Virus record (IMG/VR): IMGVR_UViG_3300032295_002548
Coordinates: 1-56,168 of that record
DNA from: a virus
Lineage: Duplodnaviria; Caudoviricetes
Reading direction: 5' to 3' (one strand)
DNA: 56,168 nucleotides
Program-made: the position numbers and the translations under genes
Part shown: positions 8,794 to 55,064 of the stretch, in pieces
How positions within the stretch are numbered: the first letter of the stretch is position 1
How the letters are laid out: the number at the start of each line of letters is the position of its first letter
The notes under the pieces: generated by a model
What the model saw: only the letters and a program-made list of their open reading frames with translations
What the model was told of the DNA's origin: nothing
The model's database searches: none

Positions 8794-10107
8794 TCAGAAG
8801 GTACGGGATGTGACGTGGGTCTGGAACTTGGTCGGAAGCACATCGCCCATCTGGCGCTCCAGCACCTCGACCGCGTCAGCCAGTTTCTGGTCGGCAGTTC
8901 GGGATACCCGGTCGCCCTTGTCAAGCTGTCCGTCGGACACCAGCCAATCGGCGAAGGTCCGATAGATGCAGTACTGCATGAACGACGTGTAGAGCGGGAT
9001 CAGCCTCCACGAGTTGGGCGCCGTCGAGGGGCTCTGACCGGCGACCGTCCCGCTCACGCAGCGGTAGTAGTTGCCTGCCCCGCTGGAGTCGGTGAAGTAG
9101 ATCTGGTTGCCGACCGCGTACGTGGCCGTGGCCGAGTAGGTCGAGCCGGTAAACGTGGGCGGGTACTTCCGGTAGAACAGGAACACCGGGTTGCACGGCA
9201 GGATGCCGTAGATGCTGCTCTGGTTGACCCCGTTGATGTAGGTCGCCCAAGCCCCGTTGATCATCTGGATCCCGTCCTGCGTCAGCAAGTATCCCTGCCG
9301 GCGGGGATAGTAGGCCGACGACGGCGACGCCTGATACACGTCAAACACCGCGTCGATCGTCTCCTCACCCGTCTGCTCCCACGGGATCAGCAGGTCGCTG
9401 ACCGGGACGTTGGTCGTCTGCTGCACGACGCAGCCCCAGACGTACGCGCCCTTGGACACATCGCCCGCGTAGCTGACCGTCGAGCCGTCCGTGGACAGCT
9501 TGAGCGAGTAGAACCCGGACGTGGTCGCATTGGCCGACGCCGTGAAGTTCAGCTGACAAACGTAGAACCCGTTGGGCTGAAGCGTGACGCTGGAGCCCGT
9601 CGCGTTGACCACCGTGCCGACCGTACCGGCAGCGATGTTGAAGAACGCGCTGTACGTCGTGACGCCATCGTAGGCCACGAGCTGCACGTTGTTGCGGCCG
9701 TTGGGCCGCACGTACGCGGTGACCGTGTACTGTTGGGACGGGAAGAACGAGTTGACCGTTTGCTGCACCCGGTGCTCCGAGTTGGCCGCGGTCTCCAACA
9801 GCAGGCTGGCCGTGACCGCACCATCGAGCGGGTTGGCGATCTGGTTGGCCGTGATCGTCAGCCCGGTGTTCGACCAGTACGCCGTCTTGGCTAGGTCGTT
9901 CGGGTAGGTCAGCCGGTTGCCGACGAACCGCGCCTCGCCCCGGGGGCAGGTCTCGTACCACTGGGTGGCGAGCCAGATGTCCCGAAGCGAGTTGTTGAAG
10001 AACTGGTTCAACGAGTCCGCAACCTCCGTGGTCAACCTCGACGGCGGAACACCGATCAGCTGGGAAACGCTGTCGAGGAACTCGGAGTAGTTGCGGGTCT
10101 TGGCCAT
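8794..10107 (-). CDS. Head-tail adaptor (tail tubular A-like) with an inserted carbohydrate-binding-like domain
   Basis: 437 aa; helical N-terminus (LNQFFNNSLRDIW...W) and C-terminus (IP..FMQY...ADWLVSDGQLDK) around a beta-rich insert (NRLTYPNDL..YWSNTG...GAYVWG). Confidence 0.65.
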   Translation of the reverse strand: MAKTRNYSEFLDSVSQLIGVPPSRLTTEVADSLNQFFNNSLRDIWLATQWYETCPRGEARFVGNRLTYPNDLAKTAYWSNTGLTITANQIANPLDGAVTASLLLETAANSEHRVQQTVNSFFPSQQYTVTAYVRPNGRNNVQLVAYDGVTTYSAFFNIAAGTVGTVVNATGSSVTLQPNGFYVCQLNFTASANATTSGFYSLKLSTDGSTVSYAGDVSKGAYVWGCVVQQTTNVPVSDLLIPWEQTGEETIDAVFDVYQASPSSAYYPRRQGYLLTQDGIQMINGAWATYINGVNQSSIYGILPCNPVFLFYRKYPPTFTGSTYSATATYAVGNQIYFTDSSGAGNYYRCVSGTVAGQSPSTAPNSWRLIPLYTSFMQYCIYRTFADWLVSDGQLDKGDRVSRTADQKLADAVEVLERQMGDVLPTKFQTHVTSRTF

Positions 10108-17829: not shown

Positions 17830-18120
17830 ATGAACAAGGGCGTACGTGACTACATCCTGAAGAACGCGGGCGTGGAGGGCTACAACCGCCCGAAGCGCAC
17901 GCCGGGGCACCCGAAAAAGTCCCACATCGTCGTGGCCAAGGAAGGCTCGCAGGTGAAGACCCTCCGCTTCGGCCAGCAGGGCGTGTCCGGGTCGCCCAAA
18001 AAGTCGGGCGAAAGCGCCTCCTACGCCGCCCGGCGCAAGTCGTTCAAGGCGCGTCACGCGAAGAACATCGCCAAGGGCAAGATGTCGGCCGCCTACTGGG
18101 CCGACAAGGTAAAATGGTGA
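17830..18120 (+). CDS. Basic protein of unknown function (96 aa), nucleic-acid-binding candidate
   Basis: VK..RFGQ.G...RRKSFKARH...SAAYWA..V.W motif, widespread in aquatic viruses. Confidence 0.75.
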   Translation: MNKGVRDYILKNAGVEGYNRPKRTPGHPKKSHIVVAKEGSQVKTLRFGQQGVSGSPKKSGESASYAARRKSFKARHAKNIAKGKMSAAYWADKVKW

Positions 18121-20870: not shown

Positions 20871-21362
20871 ATGAAGGGCGGACGCCCCAAGGGGAGTTAC
20901 AACAAACCGCGCCCTATCGACGTCGAGGCGGCGATCGAGGCGGCAGCCGACAACGCCCTGACCGGCAAGCCGATCGTGCCCGGCATGCTCAAGGGGCGGA
21001 AGAGATCCATACCATCCAAGGCCGACTGCGAACGGCTGACCCGCTCGCTGGGGGTCTCCATGGAAGAGTTCAACCAGCGGTTGGGCGAGAAGCTGGCCCT
21101 GATCTCCGACAAGATCGCCACCCGGATCGAGGAGAAGCTGGACAACGACGAGTTCAAGGCAGGTGAACTTGGGTTCATCTTCTCGGTGTCCGAGGACAAA
21201 CGCCGCGCACTGGACGTCCGAGCCCAGATGGGGGCGTCGCAGGTCAACATTCAGGTCAACAACTACGGCGACAAGAGCCGGGACGAGATCATTGCCGCCC
21301 TCACCCCTGAGTCCATGCGCCCGGCGGAGAAGGCGGAGATCGACCCGAACGACGTCATATGA
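20871..21362 (+). CDS. Terminase small subunit candidate (163 aa; start corrected)
   Basis: GRPKGSYNK N-terminus, helical core and VNIQVNN C-terminal strand, all typical of TerS. Confidence 0.55.
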   Translation: MKGGRPKGSYNKPRPIDVEAAIEAAADNALTGKPIVPGMLKGRKRSIPSKADCERLTRSLGVSMEEFNQRLGEKLALISDKIATRIEEKLDNDEFKAGELGFIFSVSEDKRRALDVRAQMGASQVNIQVNNYGDKSRDEIIAALTPESMRPAEKAEIDPNDVI

Positions 21363-21823
21363 GCAAGAAAGCCCAGAACAAGCTGATCATCTCCAGAAAA
21401 CATCTTCTCCGGAAGATGCTAGTCAATGGCGAGATCGAGGAAGCGGGGATGCGGGCAGCCGAATGGGGAATCGAGCTTTCAGACGTGCGAATTAACGCTT
21501 TTCACAATGCTCCGGCCGAAGTCATCGACCCGGATAGCCTGAAAACCATGCAGGAAGAGCTGATGCCCGCTACTCCACCCCCGCCTGCCGCATTACCATC
21601 TCCAGAGGTGGTAGTAGAGCTGAAGGAAAAGTGGCCGCCGCTGGTAGATCTGGTGATTACCGCCCACCCCATCAATGCCCGGTTGGTGACTGCCAAGCTG
21701 CCAGATCAAAGAAAGGCGTTAATGTGGCGTAGAGGCGGGCGTTTCCCCGTTGGCTGCATGGTTCGCGCCCGTTTATGCGATCAAGTAGGCCCGGAAGCCT
21801 ACTACGAGCCGGCCTACGAGTAA
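21359..21823 (+). CDS. Hypothetical protein (154 aa)
   Basis: ATGA overlap; Pro linker followed by a small beta-rich domain. Confidence 0.6.
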   Translation: MSKKAQNKLIISRKHLLRKMLVNGEIEEAGMRAAEWGIELSDVRINAFHNAPAEVIDPDSLKTMQEELMPATPPPPAALPSPEVVVELKEKWPPLVDLVITAHPINARLVTAKLPDQRKALMWRRGGRFPVGCMVRARLCDQVGPEAYYEPAYE

Positions 21824-22139
21824 GGAAGTGTTTGGCTGGTAGGCGGTTAGTGCGGCAGAAGTTGTAAAGTCGCACTGTAAAAAATCACATGGGGGGCTGG
21901 ATTGATAATATGCGCGCCCACCGCCGCTGGTGCGACCCCCTCCCCCCCTCTAAGTCGTTGATGGTGAGGGGGTTACGCACGTGTGATGCCACAATCCCTA
22001 TTATGTTAAGCAGCCTCGCATATGCCTGTGTGTGAAGGACTTACATAAAAACCGCGGTCGTCGCCGCGTCCCTCTGCCAGAGGTGGGGTGGCAGGTGCAA
22101 CCGATCGCCCTGCACCCCTTCATCACCTACCGGCCAGCC

Positions 22140-22253
22140 CTGCCACACTGCCACACTGCCGGGCTCCTTCAACCTCTTATCCTCCGGCCCTTCGCCTTCA
22201 TCGTCTCTTCCCCTACCTCTTGAAACCAGTGTGGTAGTGTGGCAGTGTGGCAG
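22140..22253. repeat. Inverted 8-bp iteron arrays; candidate replication origin
   Basis: CTG(CCACACTG)x2CC at 22140-22160 faces CAGTGTGG-TAGTGTGG-CAGTGTGG-CAG at 22227-22253 across a pyrimidine-rich spacer. Confidence 0.6.
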
Positions 22254-22299
22254 AAAGACGTTTTCCCCCTCTGAAGTGACACTTTTCGTCAAGTTGAGC

Positions 22300-22328
22300 T
22301 TGACCGGAGAACCTGTTTCGGCGATGAT
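22300..22328 (+). promoter_or_regulatory. Sigma70-like early promoter candidate
   Basis: TTGACC-17 nt-GATGAT; a further TTGACA at 22341. Confidence 0.5.
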
Positions 22329-22375
22329 GCTGGCCGTTCTTTGACATACCCACGACAAGCCCACCGGGCAGAACG

Positions 22376-22797
22376 GCGATGCCGGCGAAACGCCTGCCGC
22401 CCGACCCGGTGCCAGCTTGCGGTGGACCCCCGACCAGCCGGTGCCTTGAGGGCGACCGGCACGGATCGGCCGCCGGCGGCGCAGGGATGCGCCCCGGGCA
22501 AGACGGCCGGACGACCGGAGTGAGTAGCTCCGGAAATCACGTAGGGGGAGGACGGCGACGCGGTGCCAGCCTGCAGGGGGGTGCCGCTTCCGTTCCCGAT
22601 AAGGGGTGCCAGCCGCGAGAGCGACCGCGCCCCGTCCTGTGGTTCCTGCGATGCCGACGACACGTCTGCCGCAGGGAGGCCGAGAGAGGCGATGCCGACG
22701 ACACGTCTGCCGCCTGAGCGCCGACCATACCCGCGATGCCGACGACACGTCTGCCGTGGAGCCGACCGCCCTGCGATGCCGACGAAACGTCTGCCGC
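22376..22797 (+). repeat. 25-bp hairpin direct repeat: four clustered copies plus one isolated copy
   Basis: GCGATGCCGACGACACGTCTGCCGC consensus at 22648, 22689, 22733 and 22773; variant at 22376. Confidence 0.92.
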
Positions 22798-23006
22798 AAT
22801 GCGGAGAGGGGACGGGGGGCAGGGTAGCGGATTGGCCCCACGGTCCCCCTCGGAAGCGGGGAGCGGATGGAAGCGGGGAGTGCCCCGCGAGGGTGCAGGG
22901 TCGCCAGACGACGCTGCACCCGCCGCCTTGACCGTTGCGCCCTCGGCACCGAGGGACGCAGAACGACGCACCTTCCCCTGCCGGGCGTGAATGCCACACG
23001 CCCGGA

Positions 23007-23090
23007 GGAGTCAATGCAGCCATCGCCGCACCCTGCGGCGATGCCGGTTCCAAGCCCGGGCCGCCCTGTCGGGCGATGCAGAGGAACTCC
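23007..23090 (+). ncRNA. Twister self-cleaving ribozyme, type P1 with P3 and P5 stems
   Basis: P1 GGAGU/ACUCC; C^AA; P2 UGCA/UGCA; GC; P3 CAUCGCCGCA/UGCGGCGAUG; P4 CCGG-UUCCAAGC-CCGG; P5 CGCCC/GGGCG; GAGGA. Both pseudoknots (GC/GC, UCC/GGA) can form. Confidence 0.88.
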
Positions 23091-23112
23091 AACCCGCCAA
23101 CACGTCCCCACG

Positions 23113-23340
23113 ATGAACGCCACCCTGTCCCGCTCCGCCTCGTACCGCCTCGCCGTCTCCGCCAAGGCCGACCTCTGGCTCCCCGCCAACGGCGGCACCG
23201 AGGAGCCCTTCACGACCCGCAACGGGGTCCGCCTGCTCTACTGCTTCAACCCGCGCCTCGGCCGGCACGCTTACCTCGACCTCTCCTGCGACCACATCCT
23301 CGACGACGACGACGCCTTCCGCGCCCTCGGCCTGATCTAA
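23113..23340 (+). CDS. First early protein, hypothetical (75 aa; start corrected)
   Basis: MNATLSRS...W.PANGGTEEPF..R.G.RLLYCFNP..GRHAYLDL..D.IL; preceded by the leader motif. Confidence 0.75.
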   Translation: MNATLSRSASYRLAVSAKADLWLPANGGTEEPFTTRNGVRLLYCFNPRLGRHAYLDLSCDHILDDDDAFRALGLI

Positions 23341-23391
23341 CCCACCAACCCGTTTTCCCGTTAGTATCCAAACCAACAACACGTCATCCAC

Positions 23392-24438
23392 ATGTCCTCG
23401 TCCACTGCCTCGTACCTCGCCTCCCTCATCGCGGCCAAGCGCCGCGTCCTGTTCGTCGGCCCGCCGGGCTGCGCCAAGACCGCCCGCATCGCGGCGGCTG
23501 CCGCCGCCGCCGGTCACGACCTCGTCGTGATTCGCCTCTCGCTCGCCGAGCGGGTGGACCTCGGCGGCTGCTTGGTCCCCGACGCCGCCGGCGGCGTGAC
23601 CCGCGCCCTGCCGCTGGAGACCCTGCACCGCCTGCGCACCACCACCCGGCCGACCATCCTGCTGCTGGACGACCTCGGCCAAGCGCCCATCGACGTGCAG
23701 GCCAGCGCGATGGCGCTCTTCGACAGCGGCGCGCTGCCGGCTCACGTCCTGATCTGGGGCGCGACCAATCGGCCGGGCGACAAGTCCGGCGTGACCGGCC
23801 TGTGCGAACCGCTCCGGTCCCGGTATCACGTCGCCTTCAGCGTCGCCACGCCGGAGTCCGAGGAGAAGTCCGACGGCTCCACCTTCATCGCGCCGTGGGC
23901 CGACGAGGTCGCCGCGTGGTGCGACTGGGCCAGCGGCGAGGACTTCGCGCCGGAGATCATCGCGTGGCACCGCAGCACGACGGGCCGCACGCTGTACGCT
24001 TGGAAGCCGGTCAGCGACCCCGCGCTGCGGCTGCCCGACTTCCGCTCGTGGGAGACGGTCGGCCGCTTGTGGTCGGCCGGCCTGCGTGACCTGCGCACCG
24101 TCGGCGCGGCGATTGGCAAGCCTGCCGCCGCTGAGTTCCTCGCGTTCGCTGCGCTGGCCGATCAGCTGCCCACGCCGCAACAGGTGTGGCTCGATCCCGA
24201 CGGCGCGACGGTGCCGACCGATCCCGCTGCGCAGTACTTGATCGCGGCGATGCTCGGCCGCGCTGCGGAGCCGAAGTTCGCGACGCAGCTCGTCACCTAC
24301 TTCTCGCGGCTGCCGCGAGTGATGGGCGCTTACTGCGCCCGGGACGCTTACAAGCGGCTCGGCGCGAAGCTCGCCGGCAACGGCGCGTGGCAGCAGTGGT
24401 TCCTCGCGAACCGCCAGCTGTTCGAGACCGGCACCTAA
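23392..24438 (+). CDS. AAA+ ATPase (MoxR/dynein-related type)
   Basis: Walker A GPPGCAKT, Walker B LLLDD, sensor GATNRPGD, Arg finger PLRSR, RSWE motif. Confidence 0.88.
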   Translation: MSSSTASYLASLIAAKRRVLFVGPPGCAKTARIAAAAAAAGHDLVVIRLSLAERVDLGGCLVPDAAGGVTRALPLETLHRLRTTTRPTILLLDDLGQAPIDVQASAMALFDSGALPAHVLIWGATNRPGDKSGVTGLCEPLRSRYHVAFSVATPESEEKSDGSTFIAPWADEVAAWCDWASGEDFAPEIIAWHRSTTGRTLYAWKPVSDPALRLPDFRSWETVGRLWSAGLRDLRTVGAAIGKPAAAEFLAFAALADQLPTPQQVWLDPDGATVPTDPAAQYLIAAMLGRAAEPKFATQLVTYFSRLPRVMGAYCARDAYKRLGAKLAGNGAWQQWFLANRQLFETGT

Positions 24439-24440
24439 CA

Positions 24441-24492
24441 GGCCGAAACGCCCGCAAGGGCTTCGCACCGTCACGCGGTGCCTGATGAGGCC
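24441..24492 (+). ncRNA. Hammerhead ribozyme, type II
   Basis: GGCC-GAAA-C-GCCC(GCAA)GGGC-UUC^-GCACCG(UCACG)CGGUGC-CUGAUGA-GGCC; complete catalytic core with one C.U mismatch at the base of stem III. Confidence 0.85.
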
Positions 24493-24530
24493 AGATTGCC
24501 CCGTATCCAAACCAACAACACGTCCAACAG

Positions 24531-25343
24531 ATGAAGACCAAGACCACCACCACCGCTCCGTCCCTGATCGCCCGCAAGGCGGTCATCGCCTCGTTCACGT
24601 CGTCGCAGTGGCGCACCGTGCGCCGCCACGCCGCCGAGACCAAGGCCGAGAATGCCCGGCACGGCCTCACCGACGAGGCCCGCGTCGATGTCAAAGTGTG
24701 CAACGACCCCGCGCTCGAAGAGGCGGCGCGGATCATCACCGCAGCCCGCGCCGATCATTACCGGCTCACCGTGCCGGCCGCCGACCGCGGGATGAGGCTG
24801 CTCCCCGGCGCTCGCCAGCTGGAGCACGCCGACACCCTGCAGGCGCACGGCGTGAAGTTCCAAGCCGCTGTCGCGCAGTTCCTCGCTCGGTACGAGACGC
24901 TCCGCGCCGACGCTCCGGCCCGGCTCAACGGCCTGTACATCGCGAGCCACTGGCCCGACCTCGACCGCGTGCGCGGTTCGTTCGCGCTCTCGTGCCGCTA
25001 CCTCCCGGTGCCGGCGCTCGGTCAATGGGACGAGTGGATCGCCGAGTCGGCGAGCAACGCGACCGAGGAGATTCGCACGCGGATCGGCGAGGCGCTGCGC
25101 GCCGCTGCCGAAAAGCTGGCCGATCCCAAGGCGATCTTCCGCGACTCCCTCGTGGGCAACCTCGTCGATATCCTCAACCTCGCCGACGATCTCAACATCG
25201 CCGGCGACCCGGCGGTCGCCGACCTCGTCGCGCAAGCCAAGGCGCTCGCCAACGTCGAGCCCGACCAGCTGCGCGAGGACAAGACGCTGCGCGCCAACAC
25301 CGCCGCCCGGGCGGCCGACCTGTGCTCCCTGTTCAGCCTGTAA
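24531..25343 (+). CDS. DUF3150-like helical protein of the AAA+/vWA module
   Basis: 270 aa; HY.LTVP..DRG.RLLP, F..RY, A..RLNGLY....WP, IFRDSLV.N motifs; lies between the ATPase and vWA genes. Confidence 0.65.
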   Translation: MKTKTTTTAPSLIARKAVIASFTSSQWRTVRRHAAETKAENARHGLTDEARVDVKVCNDPALEEAARIITAARADHYRLTVPAADRGMRLLPGARQLEHADTLQAHGVKFQAAVAQFLARYETLRADAPARLNGLYIASHWPDLDRVRGSFALSCRYLPVPALGQWDEWIAESASNATEEIRTRIGEALRAAAEKLADPKAIFRDSLVGNLVDILNLADDLNIAGDPAVADLVAQAKALANVEPDQLREDKTLRANTAARAADLCSLFSL

Positions 25344-25368
25344 TCCAAACCATCAACACGTTTCCCGT

Positions 25369-26586
25369 ATGAACCCGATCAACAAAGCAACCCTGCTCCG
25401 CATCGACCGCGCCCGCTGGTGGGCGCTGTCCTCTCCCGCCGCCGTGTTTTACGGCAGCCTCGCCACCCACCTCGTCGATGTCATCGACGAGTCCATCCCG
25501 ACCGCCGCGACCGACGGCAAGCGCATCCTCTGGAACCCGACGTTCGTCGCCGGGCTCACCGACGAGGAGGTGCGGTTCGTCCTGCTCCACGAGACGTTGC
25601 ACTGCGCACACGCCCACTTCGACCGGCTCCCGCTCAATGAGCAGGGCAACAAGGCGGGCGACTACGCCATCAACCGCGTGCTGCAGGGCATCGCCGGCAT
25701 CGCGATGCCCAAGGACGGCCTGCTCGACCCGCGCTTCGACAACCTCGCCGAGGAGGAAATCCTCGCCGCCCTCGGTCGCGAGGCGCAGCCGCAGCCCGGC
25801 AACGGCAAGCCCTCGCCCGGTGCGGGTGGTGGCAAGCCGCAGCCCCAGCCCGGCAAGGGCCAGCCTGACGACGGACAAACTGGTTCGCCCGATCCCGGCG
25901 GCTGCGGTGGCTTCGTCGCCCCCGATAAGACGCCCAACCCGCAGGGCAAGACGCTCGCCGAGAAGTGGGAGCAGGCCGTGATCCAAGCCGAGTTCACGGC
26001 GAAGACCCTCGGCAAGGGCAACGCGCCGGCCGACCTCAAGCGCATCCTCGACCGCATCCGCGCCACCGACGTGGACTGGAAGCGCGAGGTCGCCGACTTC
26101 GCTCGGACCGCCATCAGCGCCAGCGCCGACTGGTCCCGCTCGACCCGCCGGATGGCGACCGCGCCGGTGATCTACCCGCGCCGCAAGCGCGACCGCGTGG
26201 GCTGCCTGCTCGTGGTGCGCGACACGTCGGGCAGCATCGACAACAAGCTGTGCGCCGAGTTCTCGGCGCAGGTCACGCAGGTCATCGCCGACCTGCAGTG
26301 CCGGGCCATCGTGCTCGACGTGGACACCCGGCTGCACGCCGAGTACCGCCTTGAGCCGGGCGACGAGTGCCCCAGCAACGCACGCGGCGGTGGCGGCACC
26401 GCCTTCACCCCGGCGTTCGACCGGCTGGCCGAGTTGCAGGACGAGGGCGAGGACATCGCCGGCGTGCTGTACCTGACCGACCTCGACGGTGAGTTCCCCG
26501 ACAACCCGCCCGACGTGCCCACCCTGTGGGTGGCGTACGGCACGACGCGCGCCGCCCCGTTCGGCCGCACGCTGCACGTGAAGTGA
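25369..26586 (+). CDS. DUF2201-type putative metallopeptidase plus vWA domain protein
   Basis: TAATDG, HETLH (HExxH), NKAGDYAIN, G/P/Q linker, MIDAS DTSGS, GGGGTAF, YLTDLDG. Confidence 0.88.
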   Translation: MNPINKATLLRIDRARWWALSSPAAVFYGSLATHLVDVIDESIPTAATDGKRILWNPTFVAGLTDEEVRFVLLHETLHCAHAHFDRLPLNEQGNKAGDYAINRVLQGIAGIAMPKDGLLDPRFDNLAEEEILAALGREAQPQPGNGKPSPGAGGGKPQPQPGKGQPDDGQTGSPDPGGCGGFVAPDKTPNPQGKTLAEKWEQAVIQAEFTAKTLGKGNAPADLKRILDRIRATDVDWKREVADFARTAISASADWSRSTRRMATAPVIYPRRKRDRVGCLLVVRDTSGSIDNKLCAEFSAQVTQVIADLQCRAIVLDVDTRLHAEYRLEPGDECPSNARGGGGTAFTPAFDRLAELQDEGEDIAGVLYLTDLDGEFPDNPPDVPTLWVAYGTTRAAPFGRTLHVK

Positions 26587-26635
26587 GGTTTCCCACCCTG
26601 CCCATCCGCCCCGTGCGGGTGGGCAGTAGGGAGCC
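26587..26635 (+). other. Long intergenic stem-loop (processing or stability element)
   Basis: CTGCCCATCCGC/GCGGGTGGGCAG 12-bp stem plus a lower GGTTTCCC/GGGAGCC stem; no U tract. Confidence 0.55.
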
Positions 26636-26671
26636 CTGACTCCATCAACAACACAACAACACGTATCCACA

Positions 26672-26785
26672 ATGAAACGCTCCGACTACATCACCACCGC
26701 CCTCTGGCTGCTCGCCTGTGCGGTGTTCGCCATCTGGTCCGCCGCCCTCGTCATCAACTCCCTGATCAACTCGTTCTCCCGATGA
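26672..26785 (+). CDS. 37-aa single-TM peptide
   Basis: Not in the ORF track. MKRSDYITTALWLLACAVFAIWSAALVINSLINSFSR; leader motif upstream and ATGA coupling downstream. Confidence 0.7.
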   Translation: MKRSDYITTALWLLACAVFAIWSAALVINSLINSFSR

Positions 26786-27459
26786 GCACCACCCCATTCG
26801 ACCTCGACGCCCACCTCGCCGCCGCCGATCCAGTCCACGCCCGCGAAGCCCGCTTCGGCTGGCACGAGAATGCCCTGCGCATCCTGCTGCCCCTCGGCTG
26901 GACGGTCGAAGACCTCGCCGAGCAAAGCCGTCCTCGCTGCGCGGCGTGCCCGCTCCTCCGCGTGACGCGCCGCAAGCGTAACGACCACGATCTACGTGCC
27001 AAGTCTACCCGGCTGCGGTTCTGGGCGGATGCCGAGGGGCGGAAGCTCCATTACAGCGACGCAGGCATCGCCGAGACGTGGGTGGAGCTGGTCATCGACG
27101 TGACTTCACCCCGCGCTCAATGGTCCGCGAATCGCTGGGTCACCCACGCCACGTTCGGCTTGGCCGAGATCATCGCCAAGGCGCAGGCCATCAAGGAGCG
27201 GGAGGAGCGGGAGGAGCGGGAGTCCGAGGCTTACCTCGCGTCCCTGCTGGTCGGCACCGGCTACACCAAGGAGGACATCGCCAATCAATTCGGCGGGTTC
27301 CACGCACGCGTCGGCACCGATGATCACGGCAAGCAATTCTTCCGTCTCAACGTGGGCAACAAGTTTCTCAGCCCGCGTTCCCGCTGGTCGAACGAGGAGA
27401 AGACGCGGAAGGTGTGCAACCTGCTCACGTTCCTACAGCAAGAAGGATGGAACGAGTGA
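26782..27459 (+). CDS. Hypothetical early protein (225 aa)
   Basis: Coupled ORF; no recognisable motif. Confidence 0.65.
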   Translation: MSTTPFDLDAHLAAADPVHAREARFGWHENALRILLPLGWTVEDLAEQSRPRCAACPLLRVTRRKRNDHDLRAKSTRLRFWADAEGRKLHYSDAGIAETWVELVIDVTSPRAQWSANRWVTHATFGLAEIIAKAQAIKEREEREERESEAYLASLLVGTGYTKEDIANQFGGFHARVGTDDHGKQFFRLNVGNKFLSPRSRWSNEEKTRKVCNLLTFLQQEGWNE

Positions 27460-53879: not shown

Positions 53880-55064
53880 TTACTGAGGGGACCGACGCTG
53901 CCAAAAACCTTGTAGTCCACCAACAGTTATCAGGTCTCCTGCCTTGATCTTACCGGCACGATAAGCTGCCTCGGCCTCTTGTTCGGTCTTGAAGGTCTTG
54001 GTGGCCGCCGGCGGCGGGGGAGCACCAGCGGCGGGCGTACCACCAGCAGAGGGCATACCGCCGAAACTGGGCATGCCGCCAGCGCCGGGCATATCCCCGC
54101 CACCGCCGCCAGCACCCATCGCGGTGTTCAACCCGGGAACCGTCCCGAACAAAGCGGGGTTGGGGACGTTGGAGTACATCAGGCGACCATACTGATCGGT
54201 CGTTGCTCGCAGGTTGATCGGCATGCCGGTCTGGTCGTCAACCCAGTCCTCACCGTCCCATGTGGCGGTGACCGTTCGGTCGTTGATCCGGTAGGTCTTC
54301 TTGGCTCCGTACGCAGGCTTAGAACCTGCAGCCCGCTTGGCCTCTGCCTCGGCATTTCGCCGCGCCCGCTCGGCGTCTTCGGCCGTCTGCTTCAGGCGTT
54401 CGATCTCCCCACGCTGGGTTATGACGTCCTGATTCTGGAACAGCTTAATGGACTCTTCCGCACCCAAGCCAAGCTCTTCGCCCTGTGCTACGGACTGGAT
54501 GAGCTGGTTATTTTTGAGCTGCTTGTACCGATCCGCCTGCTCGATGGTCATCGGCGCGCCCTCACGATCCATCGTCAGCAGGTCGCGGTACTCCTTGGTC
54601 ACCCCCCGCATGCGGTCGAACATCTGGGTCTGCTTCTGTCGGTCCAGCGTCGCCGCATCGGACGCCGCCTTGGCCGCCACAGCCTGTTCACGGAGGGCGT
54701 CGGTGTAGCCCCGCTGAGCCTTGGCCTGCTCCATCTCCCGGTTCATCTTGCCGGTGGTGATGGTCTGTTCGAGGAAGCCGCCCAGACGATTGGCATACTG
54801 CTTGGTGCTCTCGTCGTTGCTGCGCTTCATGAACGCCTCGACGTCCGCGGGGGTGAGCCCGAACTCCGCGGCCTTCGGCTTGATGAACGTGTTGATCGCG
54901 GCCTCGGTGACCTTGAGCTTGGTGCCGAAGTCCTTCTCCTCTTCCTGCCGACGATATCCCTCGTCGATGAACTGATTGACCGCACCCGCGATGCCGCGGG
55001 CACGATCCATCGTGCCTTGGTAAAGGATACGACCGGCTTCCCGGTTGGGTGCGACAAAGGCCAT
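53880..55064 (-). CDS. Internal virion protein candidate (394 aa)
   Basis: A/Q/E-rich helical protein with a G/P linker; lies upstream of the giant protein. Confidence 0.65.
   Translation of the reverse strand: MAFVAPNREAGRILYQGTMDRARGIAGAVNQFIDEGYRRQEEEKDFGTKLKVTEAAINTFIKPKAAEFGLTPADVEAFMKRSNDESTKQYANRLGGFLEQTITTGKMNREMEQAKAQRGYTDALREQAVAAKAASDAATLDRQKQTQMFDRMRGVTKEYRDLLTMDREGAPMTIEQADRYKQLKNNQLIQSVAQGEELGLGAEESIKLFQNQDVITQRGEIERLKQTAEDAERARRNAEAEAKRAAGSKPAYGAKKTYRINDRTVTATWDGEDWVDDQTGMPINLRATTDQYGRLMYSNVPNPALFGTVPGLNTAMGAGGGGGDMPGAGGMPSFGGMPSAGGTPAAGAPPPPAATKTFKTEQEAEAAYRAGKIKAGDLITVGGLQGFWQRRSPQ

Follow-up and report, generated by a model that had tools for sequence, protein, structure and literature searches.

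What becomes of a phage transcript that carries self-cleaving ribozymes of two different classes on either side of its first genes? The question is raised by the IMG/VR virus record IMGVR_UViG_3300032295_002548, which we analyzed over its whole length of 56,168 bases and refer to here as the window; CheckV estimates it to be 100% complete, and it is a complete ~56-kb phage genome, known from metagenomes only. At the head of its replication-gene block, a type-P1 twister ribozyme and a type II hammerhead ribozyme bracket a 75-amino acid (aa) open reading frame (ORF) and a gene for an AAA ATPase. The original prediction held that the two ribozymes release a two-gene mRNA with ligatable ends, partitioning a polycistron so as to tune the stoichiometry of the AAA+ ATPase and a vWA protein, and possibly giving rise to a natural circular mRNA. 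We put at roughly 60% the probability that the twister and the hammerhead are two independent, cis-acting mRNA-processing modules whose products are linear.

Two ribozyme cut sites flank a two-gene segment

The cut sites that we derive are those originally proposed, between C23012 and A23013 for the twister and between C24464 and G24465 for the hammerhead. The two cuts flank the 75-aa ORF and the ATPase gene, and the piece between them is 1452 nt long, as had been claimed; the hammerhead does begin 2 nt past the ATPase stop codon (stop at 24436-24438, stem II from 24441). Self-cleaving ribozymes leave 5′-OH and 2′,3′-cyclic phosphate ends, and the proposal that the excised piece would carry this pair follows from established ribozyme chemistry. 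Such an excised RNA would keep the twister body in full, together with half of the hammerhead. Both ribozymes are also, in keeping with the prediction, genuine members of their families, having homologues in relatives, covarying base pairs, and intact cores.

Relatives were gathered through the ATPase, and comprise four viral records, two genome contigs (one belonging to a Phycisphaerales metagenome-assembled genome [MAG]), and 80 metagenome loci. We searched the window with Rfam in gathering-threshold mode and then in E-value mode. At gathering thresholds, Rfam reports no RNA family anywhere in the window; E-value mode returns exactly two ribozyme matches, each covering its full model.

A type-P1 twister at the head of the replication block

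The twister spans 23004..23093 on the + strand and is of the four-way-junction form, an assignment that draws on Rfam, homologues, covariation, and fold. Stems P1, P2, and P4 stand in type-P1 order, with P1 pairing 23007-23011 to 23086-23090 and the cut at 23012|23013, and neither of the optional stems, P3 and P5, is missing. Pseudoknot T1 pairs 23019-23020 with 23054-23055, and T2 pairs 23049-23051 with 23083-23085. All of the core letters are kept (AA, GCC, GCCGGU, CCAAGCCCGG, and GAGG), the N|A cleavage site is present, and the minimum free energy (MFE) fold contains P1 to P5 and the four-way junction (z -3.1). The CHiTA study writes the twister cleavage site as 'NA' and describes imperfections at position -1 as broadly tolerated (PMC11662667), so the C at -1 in the window twister is acceptable.

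The Rfam match is to twister-P1 (RF03160) at 23008-23089 on the + strand, with 41.9 bits compared to a gathering threshold of 67.2 and an E-value of 7e-6 for the whole window; the shortfall is at least partly due to a 13-nt insertion in P5 and to the junction letters. A covariance model (R2) built from the window and one relative, L004, and searched over 87 sources gave 11 matches, all on the gene-sense strand, and Rfam independently gives all eleven of these twisters 37.5-55 bits. When the 11 homologues (nine distinct) are aligned, 95.9% of 222 cells are paired and 11 of 25 pairs show compensatory changes, T1 and T2 included. Across the nine distinct sequences, the proportion of paired cells is 97.7% for P1 and 100% for each of P2, P4, T1, and T2. 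The compensatory changes in the pseudoknots fall at alignment columns 16:58, 52:88, and 53:87; T2 occurs as UCC/GGA, CCC/GGG, CAC/GUG, or UAC/GUA, and T1 as G:C or A:U. On this comparative evidence, the window twister is a genuine family member that was overlooked by Rfam thresholds.

An AUG at 23014-23016 lies within the twister core, one base past the cut and in frame with the 75-aa ORF, with the GGAGG of P1 before it. We considered a near-leaderless mRNA for the 75-aa protein starting at this AUG and rejected it; the AUG is in frame at five of ten twister loci, three of which are one lineage, and we attribute this to chance.

A type II hammerhead behind the ATPase gene

The hammerhead lies at 24438..24504 on the + strand. 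Its stem II (24441-24444 with 24489-24492) is open and loops cap its stems I and III, and reading along the strand, it consists of the first half of stem II, GAAA (24445-24448), the stem III hairpin (24449-24463), C17 (24464, with the cut at 24464|24465), the stem I hairpin (24465-24481), CUGAUGA (24482-24488), and the second half of stem II. The Rfam match, to Hammerhead_II (RF02276) at 24441-24496 on the + strand, has 25 bits compared to a gathering threshold of 37, and an E-value of 0.87 for the whole window or 0.05 for a 3.3-kb region; taken alone, this score is no better than chance. The reality of the hammerhead is settled because relatives carry strong homologues with covarying pairs. 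A covariance model (R1) built from the window and two relatives, L003 and L006, gives the window copy 78.9 bits and, over the 87 sources, finds 13 matches of 62-90 bits, all on the gene-sense strand; 11 further matches of 17 bits or less were set aside. We treat the weak matches to our own models (R1, 17 bits or less; R2, 19 bits or less) as noise, including those in the window at 54438-54486, 17952-18024, and 9589-9669.

The alignment of 12 hammerheads (11 distinct) has standard pairs in 99.4% of 176 cells, and seven of its 16 pairs are compensatory, comprising all six pairs of stem I and one pair of stem II, which occurs as GGCC/GGCC, GGAC/GUCC, or GGUC/GACC. The core (CUGANGA, GAAA, and A15.1-U16.1) is invariant in all 12 family members, and C17 is present. 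Judged by these homologues, the window hammerhead too is a genuine family member that Rfam thresholds overlook.

Ribozymes, hairpins, and promoter-like sites alternate at the same boundaries

We kept 64 loci including the window for comparison, having dropped the duplicates L005, L007, and L021 and 23 loci with ATPase identity no higher than 35%; L029/L030, L027/L028, and similar near-duplicates stayed unmerged. Among the 42 loci with at least 1 kb of flank upstream of the ATPase gene, a twister is present there in 10 and a type II hammerhead in eight, which leaves 24 lacking both. The upstream element tracks ATPase identity: twisters are found at 76-100%, hammerheads at 68-74%, and nothing below 68%. 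Where the flank downstream of the ATPase gene reaches 120 nt or more (48 loci), a hammerhead is present at three, namely the window, L011, and L013. The twister and hammerhead bracket occurs at three of 64 loci, or three of the 48 that have downstream flank. ATPase identity at these loci is 97% or more, and by this comparison the bracket is not conserved but recent and dispensable.

Other elements occupy the same boundaries. Three relatives (L014, L004, and L009) have a 10-bp GC hairpin at the hammerhead site, and a strong GC hairpin, its stem being 10 bp or longer and beginning no more than ~25 nt from the stop codon, was counted by eye at the ATPase 3′ boundary in 22 of 41 folded loci. Every hammerhead abuts or closely follows the stop codon of the upstream gene, and lies ~15-25 nt ahead of the next ATG. 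Three of the four related whole phage records carry one ribozyme each, always at the replication block and none elsewhere in the genome. Rfam in E-value mode, applied to the window and 46 related loci, reports only twister-P1 and Hammerhead_II among ribozyme classes; its microRNA, CRISPR-DR, small RNA, and small nucleolar RNA matches are far below thresholds and were treated as chance.

At four loci that lack a ribozyme (L022, L023, L040, and L033), a sigma-70-like promoter (for example TTGACT, 17 nt, TAGATT) was seen by eye directly before the ATPase gene, and at three others (L025, L028, and L048) a ~20-bp hairpin was seen in that position, again by eye. L011 has a 99%-identical ATPase and an identical hammerhead, and a different twister variant resembling that of L014 (L011 positions 1012-1101, corresponding to 23004-23093 of the window), with P1 as GGAAC/GUUCC, T2 as CCC/GGG, and P3 and P5 differing from those of the window. 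This twister variant suggests that recombination took place between the twister and the ATPase gene.

A model of mRNA processing

We propose that the twister would remove a long, repeat-rich 5′ leader, the start of which may lie at 22300-22328, leaving an mRNA with a 5′-OH whose first ~80 nt are the compact, folded twister body. The hammerhead would cut the operon RNA just past the ATPase stop codon. The upstream piece would then end in the stem III hairpin with a 2′,3′-cyclic phosphate, and the downstream piece would have a 5′-OH and the stem I hairpin at its start, with the next AUG following after ~65 nt. In this way the fate of the two-gene piece would be uncoupled from both the leader and the downstream genes.

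Partition of a polycistron, as originally proposed, fits the presence of GC hairpins, the other ribozyme, or promoters at the same boundaries in relatives, and is an idea already in print. The observations behind it are of sequence, fold, covariation, position, and the exchange with hairpins or promoters among relatives; we infer that cleavage would occur in vivo and that the new ends would influence RNA stability or translation. The more specific proposal, that the partition tunes AAA+:vWA stoichiometry, is not supported; a gene for a 270-aa product sits between the hammerhead cut and the vWA gene.

Several points weigh against two working processing modules. The twister and the hammerhead both score under the curated gathering cut-offs of Rfam, and the expected consequences for stability are drawn from general knowledge of RNA decay; a search for RNA sequencing runs matching 21000-27000 of the window listed none. 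The other points concern the hammerhead. Its C15.2·U16.2 mismatch (24449/24462), which adjoins the cleavage site, is the sole unpaired cell of 176 in the hammerhead family; it is present in the window and in the identical copy of L011, whereas L013 (ATPase 97% identical), the nearest relative to carry a hammerhead here, has G16.2. The MFE structure of the window copy is a non-hammerhead misfold at -25.7 kcal/mol, the hammerhead fold being the ensemble centroid at -25.5 kcal/mol; for the G16.2 hammerhead of L013, the MFE structure is the hammerhead fold, at -28.9 kcal/mol. The ~60-nt hammerhead cassette is also cleanly missing from L012, a 98%-identical relative, which shows the hammerhead to be dispensable. 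In most type II hammerheads, fast cleavage is aided by a pseudoknot that loop I forms with the 3′ tail, as described by Perreault et al. (PMC3088659). By eye, this pseudoknot was not found in the 12 aligned hammerheads, which offer three complementary bases at most, and these inconsistently; it is common in type II hammerheads but not obligatory, and loop I of this group is 5 nt long. A pairing between the stem III GCAA loop and UUGC in the tail, found in the window, was dropped, as it is not kept in L006 or L003. Folding indicates that the mismatch may weaken the window hammerhead, and the second cut may be weak in this particular genome; a literature search on 15.2/16.2 mismatches yielded nothing of use.

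How far should these points be taken? We think it unlikely, if well short of negligible, that only the twister works, with a decaying or strongly attenuated hammerhead, a 1452-nt piece that forms rarely or never, and an ATPase gene that stays with the downstream genes on one RNA. The mismatch, the misfolded MFE structure, and the loss of the cassette in L012 all favor this, as does the failure to find, by eye, any tertiary contact in the hammerhead. However, apart from the mismatch, the window copy keeps an intact catalytic core, A15.1-U16.1, and all three stems, and the centroid fold is just 0.2 kcal/mol above the MFE structure; U16.2 also persists in the population, because it occurs in L011, a second, independently assembled contig. 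We regard as improbable a reading in which the ribozymes belong to selfish or passenger cassettes, moving among intergenic sites of these phages and playing no part in phage gene expression. Presence and absence do vary between near-identical genomes, different ribozyme classes stand at similar positions while many relatives have none, and the twister variant of L011 points to recombination. Yet all of the matches are sense-oriented and at gene boundaries, no target-site duplication or mobility gene is seen by eye at the cassette borders, and both folds are maintained through compensatory changes in relatives whose ATPase identity falls as low as 68%, which speaks for selection on activity. 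A milder reading of the same comparisons is that self-cleaving ribozymes, GC hairpins, and promoters may be interchangeable mRNA-end cassettes, swapped by recombination within a few percent of divergence.

A circular mRNA would require a host RtcB-type ligase to join the 5′-OH at 23013 to the 2′,3′-cyclic phosphate at 24464, the result being a circle of 1452 nt with the coding sequences of both the 75-aa protein and the ATPase. The ends have the right chemistry, the Phycisphaerales MAG that holds the related contig L009 encodes RtcB (284 bits), such that a host ligase may be available, and both genes have CA-rich leaders of their own (described below) from which internal initiation is conceivable. 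We nonetheless consider the circle very improbable, and would scarcely expect it to be formed in RtcB-bearing infected cells and translated from those internal leaders. The bracket is confined to three of the 48 relatives with downstream flank, and L012 lacks its hammerhead; the window hammerhead appears weakened by its mismatch and predicted misfold; and the first and last 30, 50, or 80 nt of the piece pair within the distribution of shuffled sequences, a fraction of 0.23-0.51 of the shuffles doing as well or better. No RtcB, Rnl2-type, or 2′-5′ ligase family is encoded by the phage, and a search for T4 Rnl1 had no working control. The 5′ end of the twister 3′ fragment has been reported to be buried and poorly ligatable (PMC8782182), and Perreault et al. 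sought circular or spliced products of phage hammerhead clusters and detected none (PMC3088659). Among the literature matches listed, none announces in its title a natural circular mRNA made by ribozymes in bacteria or phages. The circular mRNA of the original prediction thus finds no support beyond its end chemistry, since the bracket is unconserved, the ends pair no better than chance, and the phage has no ligase among the families searched. Independent processing into linear products is the reading that we retain.

The gene block and a possible host

The window has a GC content of 62% and no tRNA genes, and a tblastn search for relatives of the ATPase in 50,697 GenBank phage records gave no match; the host is possibly a Phycisphaerales bacterium. 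The replication module occupies ~23.1 to 37.4 kb on the + strand, and is preceded by ~1.1 kb without a convincing gene. The AAA ATPase (PF00004, phrog_1297) and a DUF2201_N/DUF2201 vWA-like protein (phrog_1314) are among its first genes, and it also codes for a PriCT_2/DUF5906 primase-like protein, a DUF2800 PD-(D/E)XK nuclease, an Enc34-type single-stranded DNA-binding protein, a DNA polymerase A, and an SNF2 helicase.

The 75-aa ORF (23113..23340, + strand) is conserved in relatives and matches no family in Pfam or PHROG; its counterpart in L004 is 58% identical (E 1e-32), on which ground we take it to be a real gene. The ATPase gene (23392..24438, + strand; 348 aa) is assigned by PF00004 (E 7.6e-5), phrog_1297 (E 1.4e-37), and its relatives. 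The first gene past the hammerhead cut is the 270-aa ORF (24531..25343, + strand), the family of which is unknown and the third-position GC of which is 0.91. It is followed by the gene for the 405-aa protein with DUF2201_N metallopeptidase-like and DUF2201 vWA-like domains (25369..26586, + strand; E 9e-28 and 4e-19; phrog_1314, E 4.5e-72). Similar CA-rich leaders (consensus near ATCCAAACCAACAACACGTC) stand before each gene of the block, at 23364-23391, 24503-24530, and 25341-25368 of the window; they have no Shine-Dalgarno-like purine run, and comparable CA-rich leaders are found in relatives.

The non-coding region upstream of the twister

A sigma-70-like promoter match (TTGACC, 17 nt, GATGAT) lies at 22300..22328 on the + strand, with one match compared to 0.2 expected in shuffled sequences. 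It is a consensus match only, with no evidence of function, and the consensus may not suit the host; if this promoter were used, the twister would cut off a ~680-nt leader. Five copies of a 22-nt repeat (GATGCCGRCGAMAYGYCTGCCG) are present on the + strand within 22378..22796, compared to 0 expected; their spacing is ~40-44 nt, with one copy 272 nt further upstream. The repeat recurs upstream of the twister in L004, L011, L013, L014, L017, L018, and L050, in one to seven copies, each time on the + strand. Covariation is seen in its palindromic core (GGCG..CGCC versus GACG..CGTC), and one repeat unit folds at -13.6 kcal/mol (z -2.6). The repeats could be origin iterons beside the replication genes, operator sites, or hairpins in the leader RNA that the twister would release.

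Further conserved segments lie in the same region. A ~40-nt stretch with a 7-bp hairpin (CCCTCGG..CCGAGGG; window 22925-22967) is found 40-130 nt upstream of the twister in most of the twister-bearing relatives (L004, L011, L012, L013, L014, L017, and L018), and a second conserved GC-rich block lies further upstream of it. A 21-nt inverted repeat in non-coding sequence, at 22140-22160 and 22233-22253 of the window, has arms that are 95% complementary and 72 nt apart, composed of CTGCCACA units.

Discussion

Self-cleaving ribozymes that flank phage genes have been known for some time. Perreault et al. described clustered hammerheads that flank prophage genes and cleave in vitro and in E. coli, proposed in 2011 that they process long phage transcripts into gene-length mRNAs, and considered circular or spliced products (PMC3088659). 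The processing idea also appears in a 2019 review, which describes the role of most bacterial and phage self-cleaving ribozymes as still open (PMC6765202). A loose parallel comes from a 2026 paper that reports, for some RNA viruses, translation initiation made possible by self-cleavage (PMC13725137). The placement of ribozymes beside phage genes was thus published in 2011, as was the circle hypothesis, and the locus described here is no new kind of system.

New in detail are the way in which ribozymes of either class, hairpins, and promoters replace one another at boundaries that stay fixed, the polymorphism of cassettes in near-identical phages, and two sub-threshold ribozyme variants, which illustrate that genuine ribozymes can score well under Rfam thresholds. 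This phage group is a compact natural experiment in which near-identical genomes differ by a ~60-nt hammerhead cassette; the same boundary may have a hammerhead, a GC hairpin, or nothing, and what stands at the head of the operon may be a promoter-like site or a ribozyme, either twister or hammerhead. Because of this interchange at fixed boundaries, the idea that ribozymes define mRNA ends is directly testable with a few constructs. The circle, if true, would give engineered ribozyme-made circles a counterpart in nature.

Four known systems offer comparisons. The type-P1 twister class was reportedly described by Roth et al. in 2014, and the window copy resembles the members of RF03160 in P1, P2, P4, both pseudoknots, the core letters, the N|A site, and its phage-gene neighborhood near a hammerhead; it differs in scoring 41.9 bits, under the gathering threshold of 67.2, in having both P3 and P5, in the C at -1, and in a T2 of UCC/GGA. 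In the Tornado system of Litke and Jaffrey (2019), the ends are said to lie in a designed stem and most of each ribozyme to be removed. The window shares with Tornado two flanking self-cleaving ribozymes and the 5′-OH and 2′,3′-cyclic phosphate that form the RtcB substrate pair; unlike in Tornado, the ends pair no better than chance, and the twister body and half of the hammerhead would stay on the excised RNA.

The hammerheads described here are like other type II hammerheads (RF02276; Perreault et al. 2011) in their open stem II, closed stems I and III, full core, and intergenic phage context; they differ in showing no loop I/3′-tail pseudoknot and in having a 5-nt loop I and a 4-bp stem II, the window copy differing further in its score of 25 bits, under the gathering threshold of 37, and in its C15.2·U16.2 mismatch. 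Finally, as in the prophage hammerhead clusters (PMC3088659), sense-oriented ribozymes flank one gene or a short gene block in phage DNA. Unlike in those clusters, the 5′ member here is a twister, the lineage has, by the ATPase search, no relative in 50,697 GenBank phage records, and the orthologous sites of relatives are occupied by the other class of ribozyme, by a GC hairpin, or by a promoter-like site.

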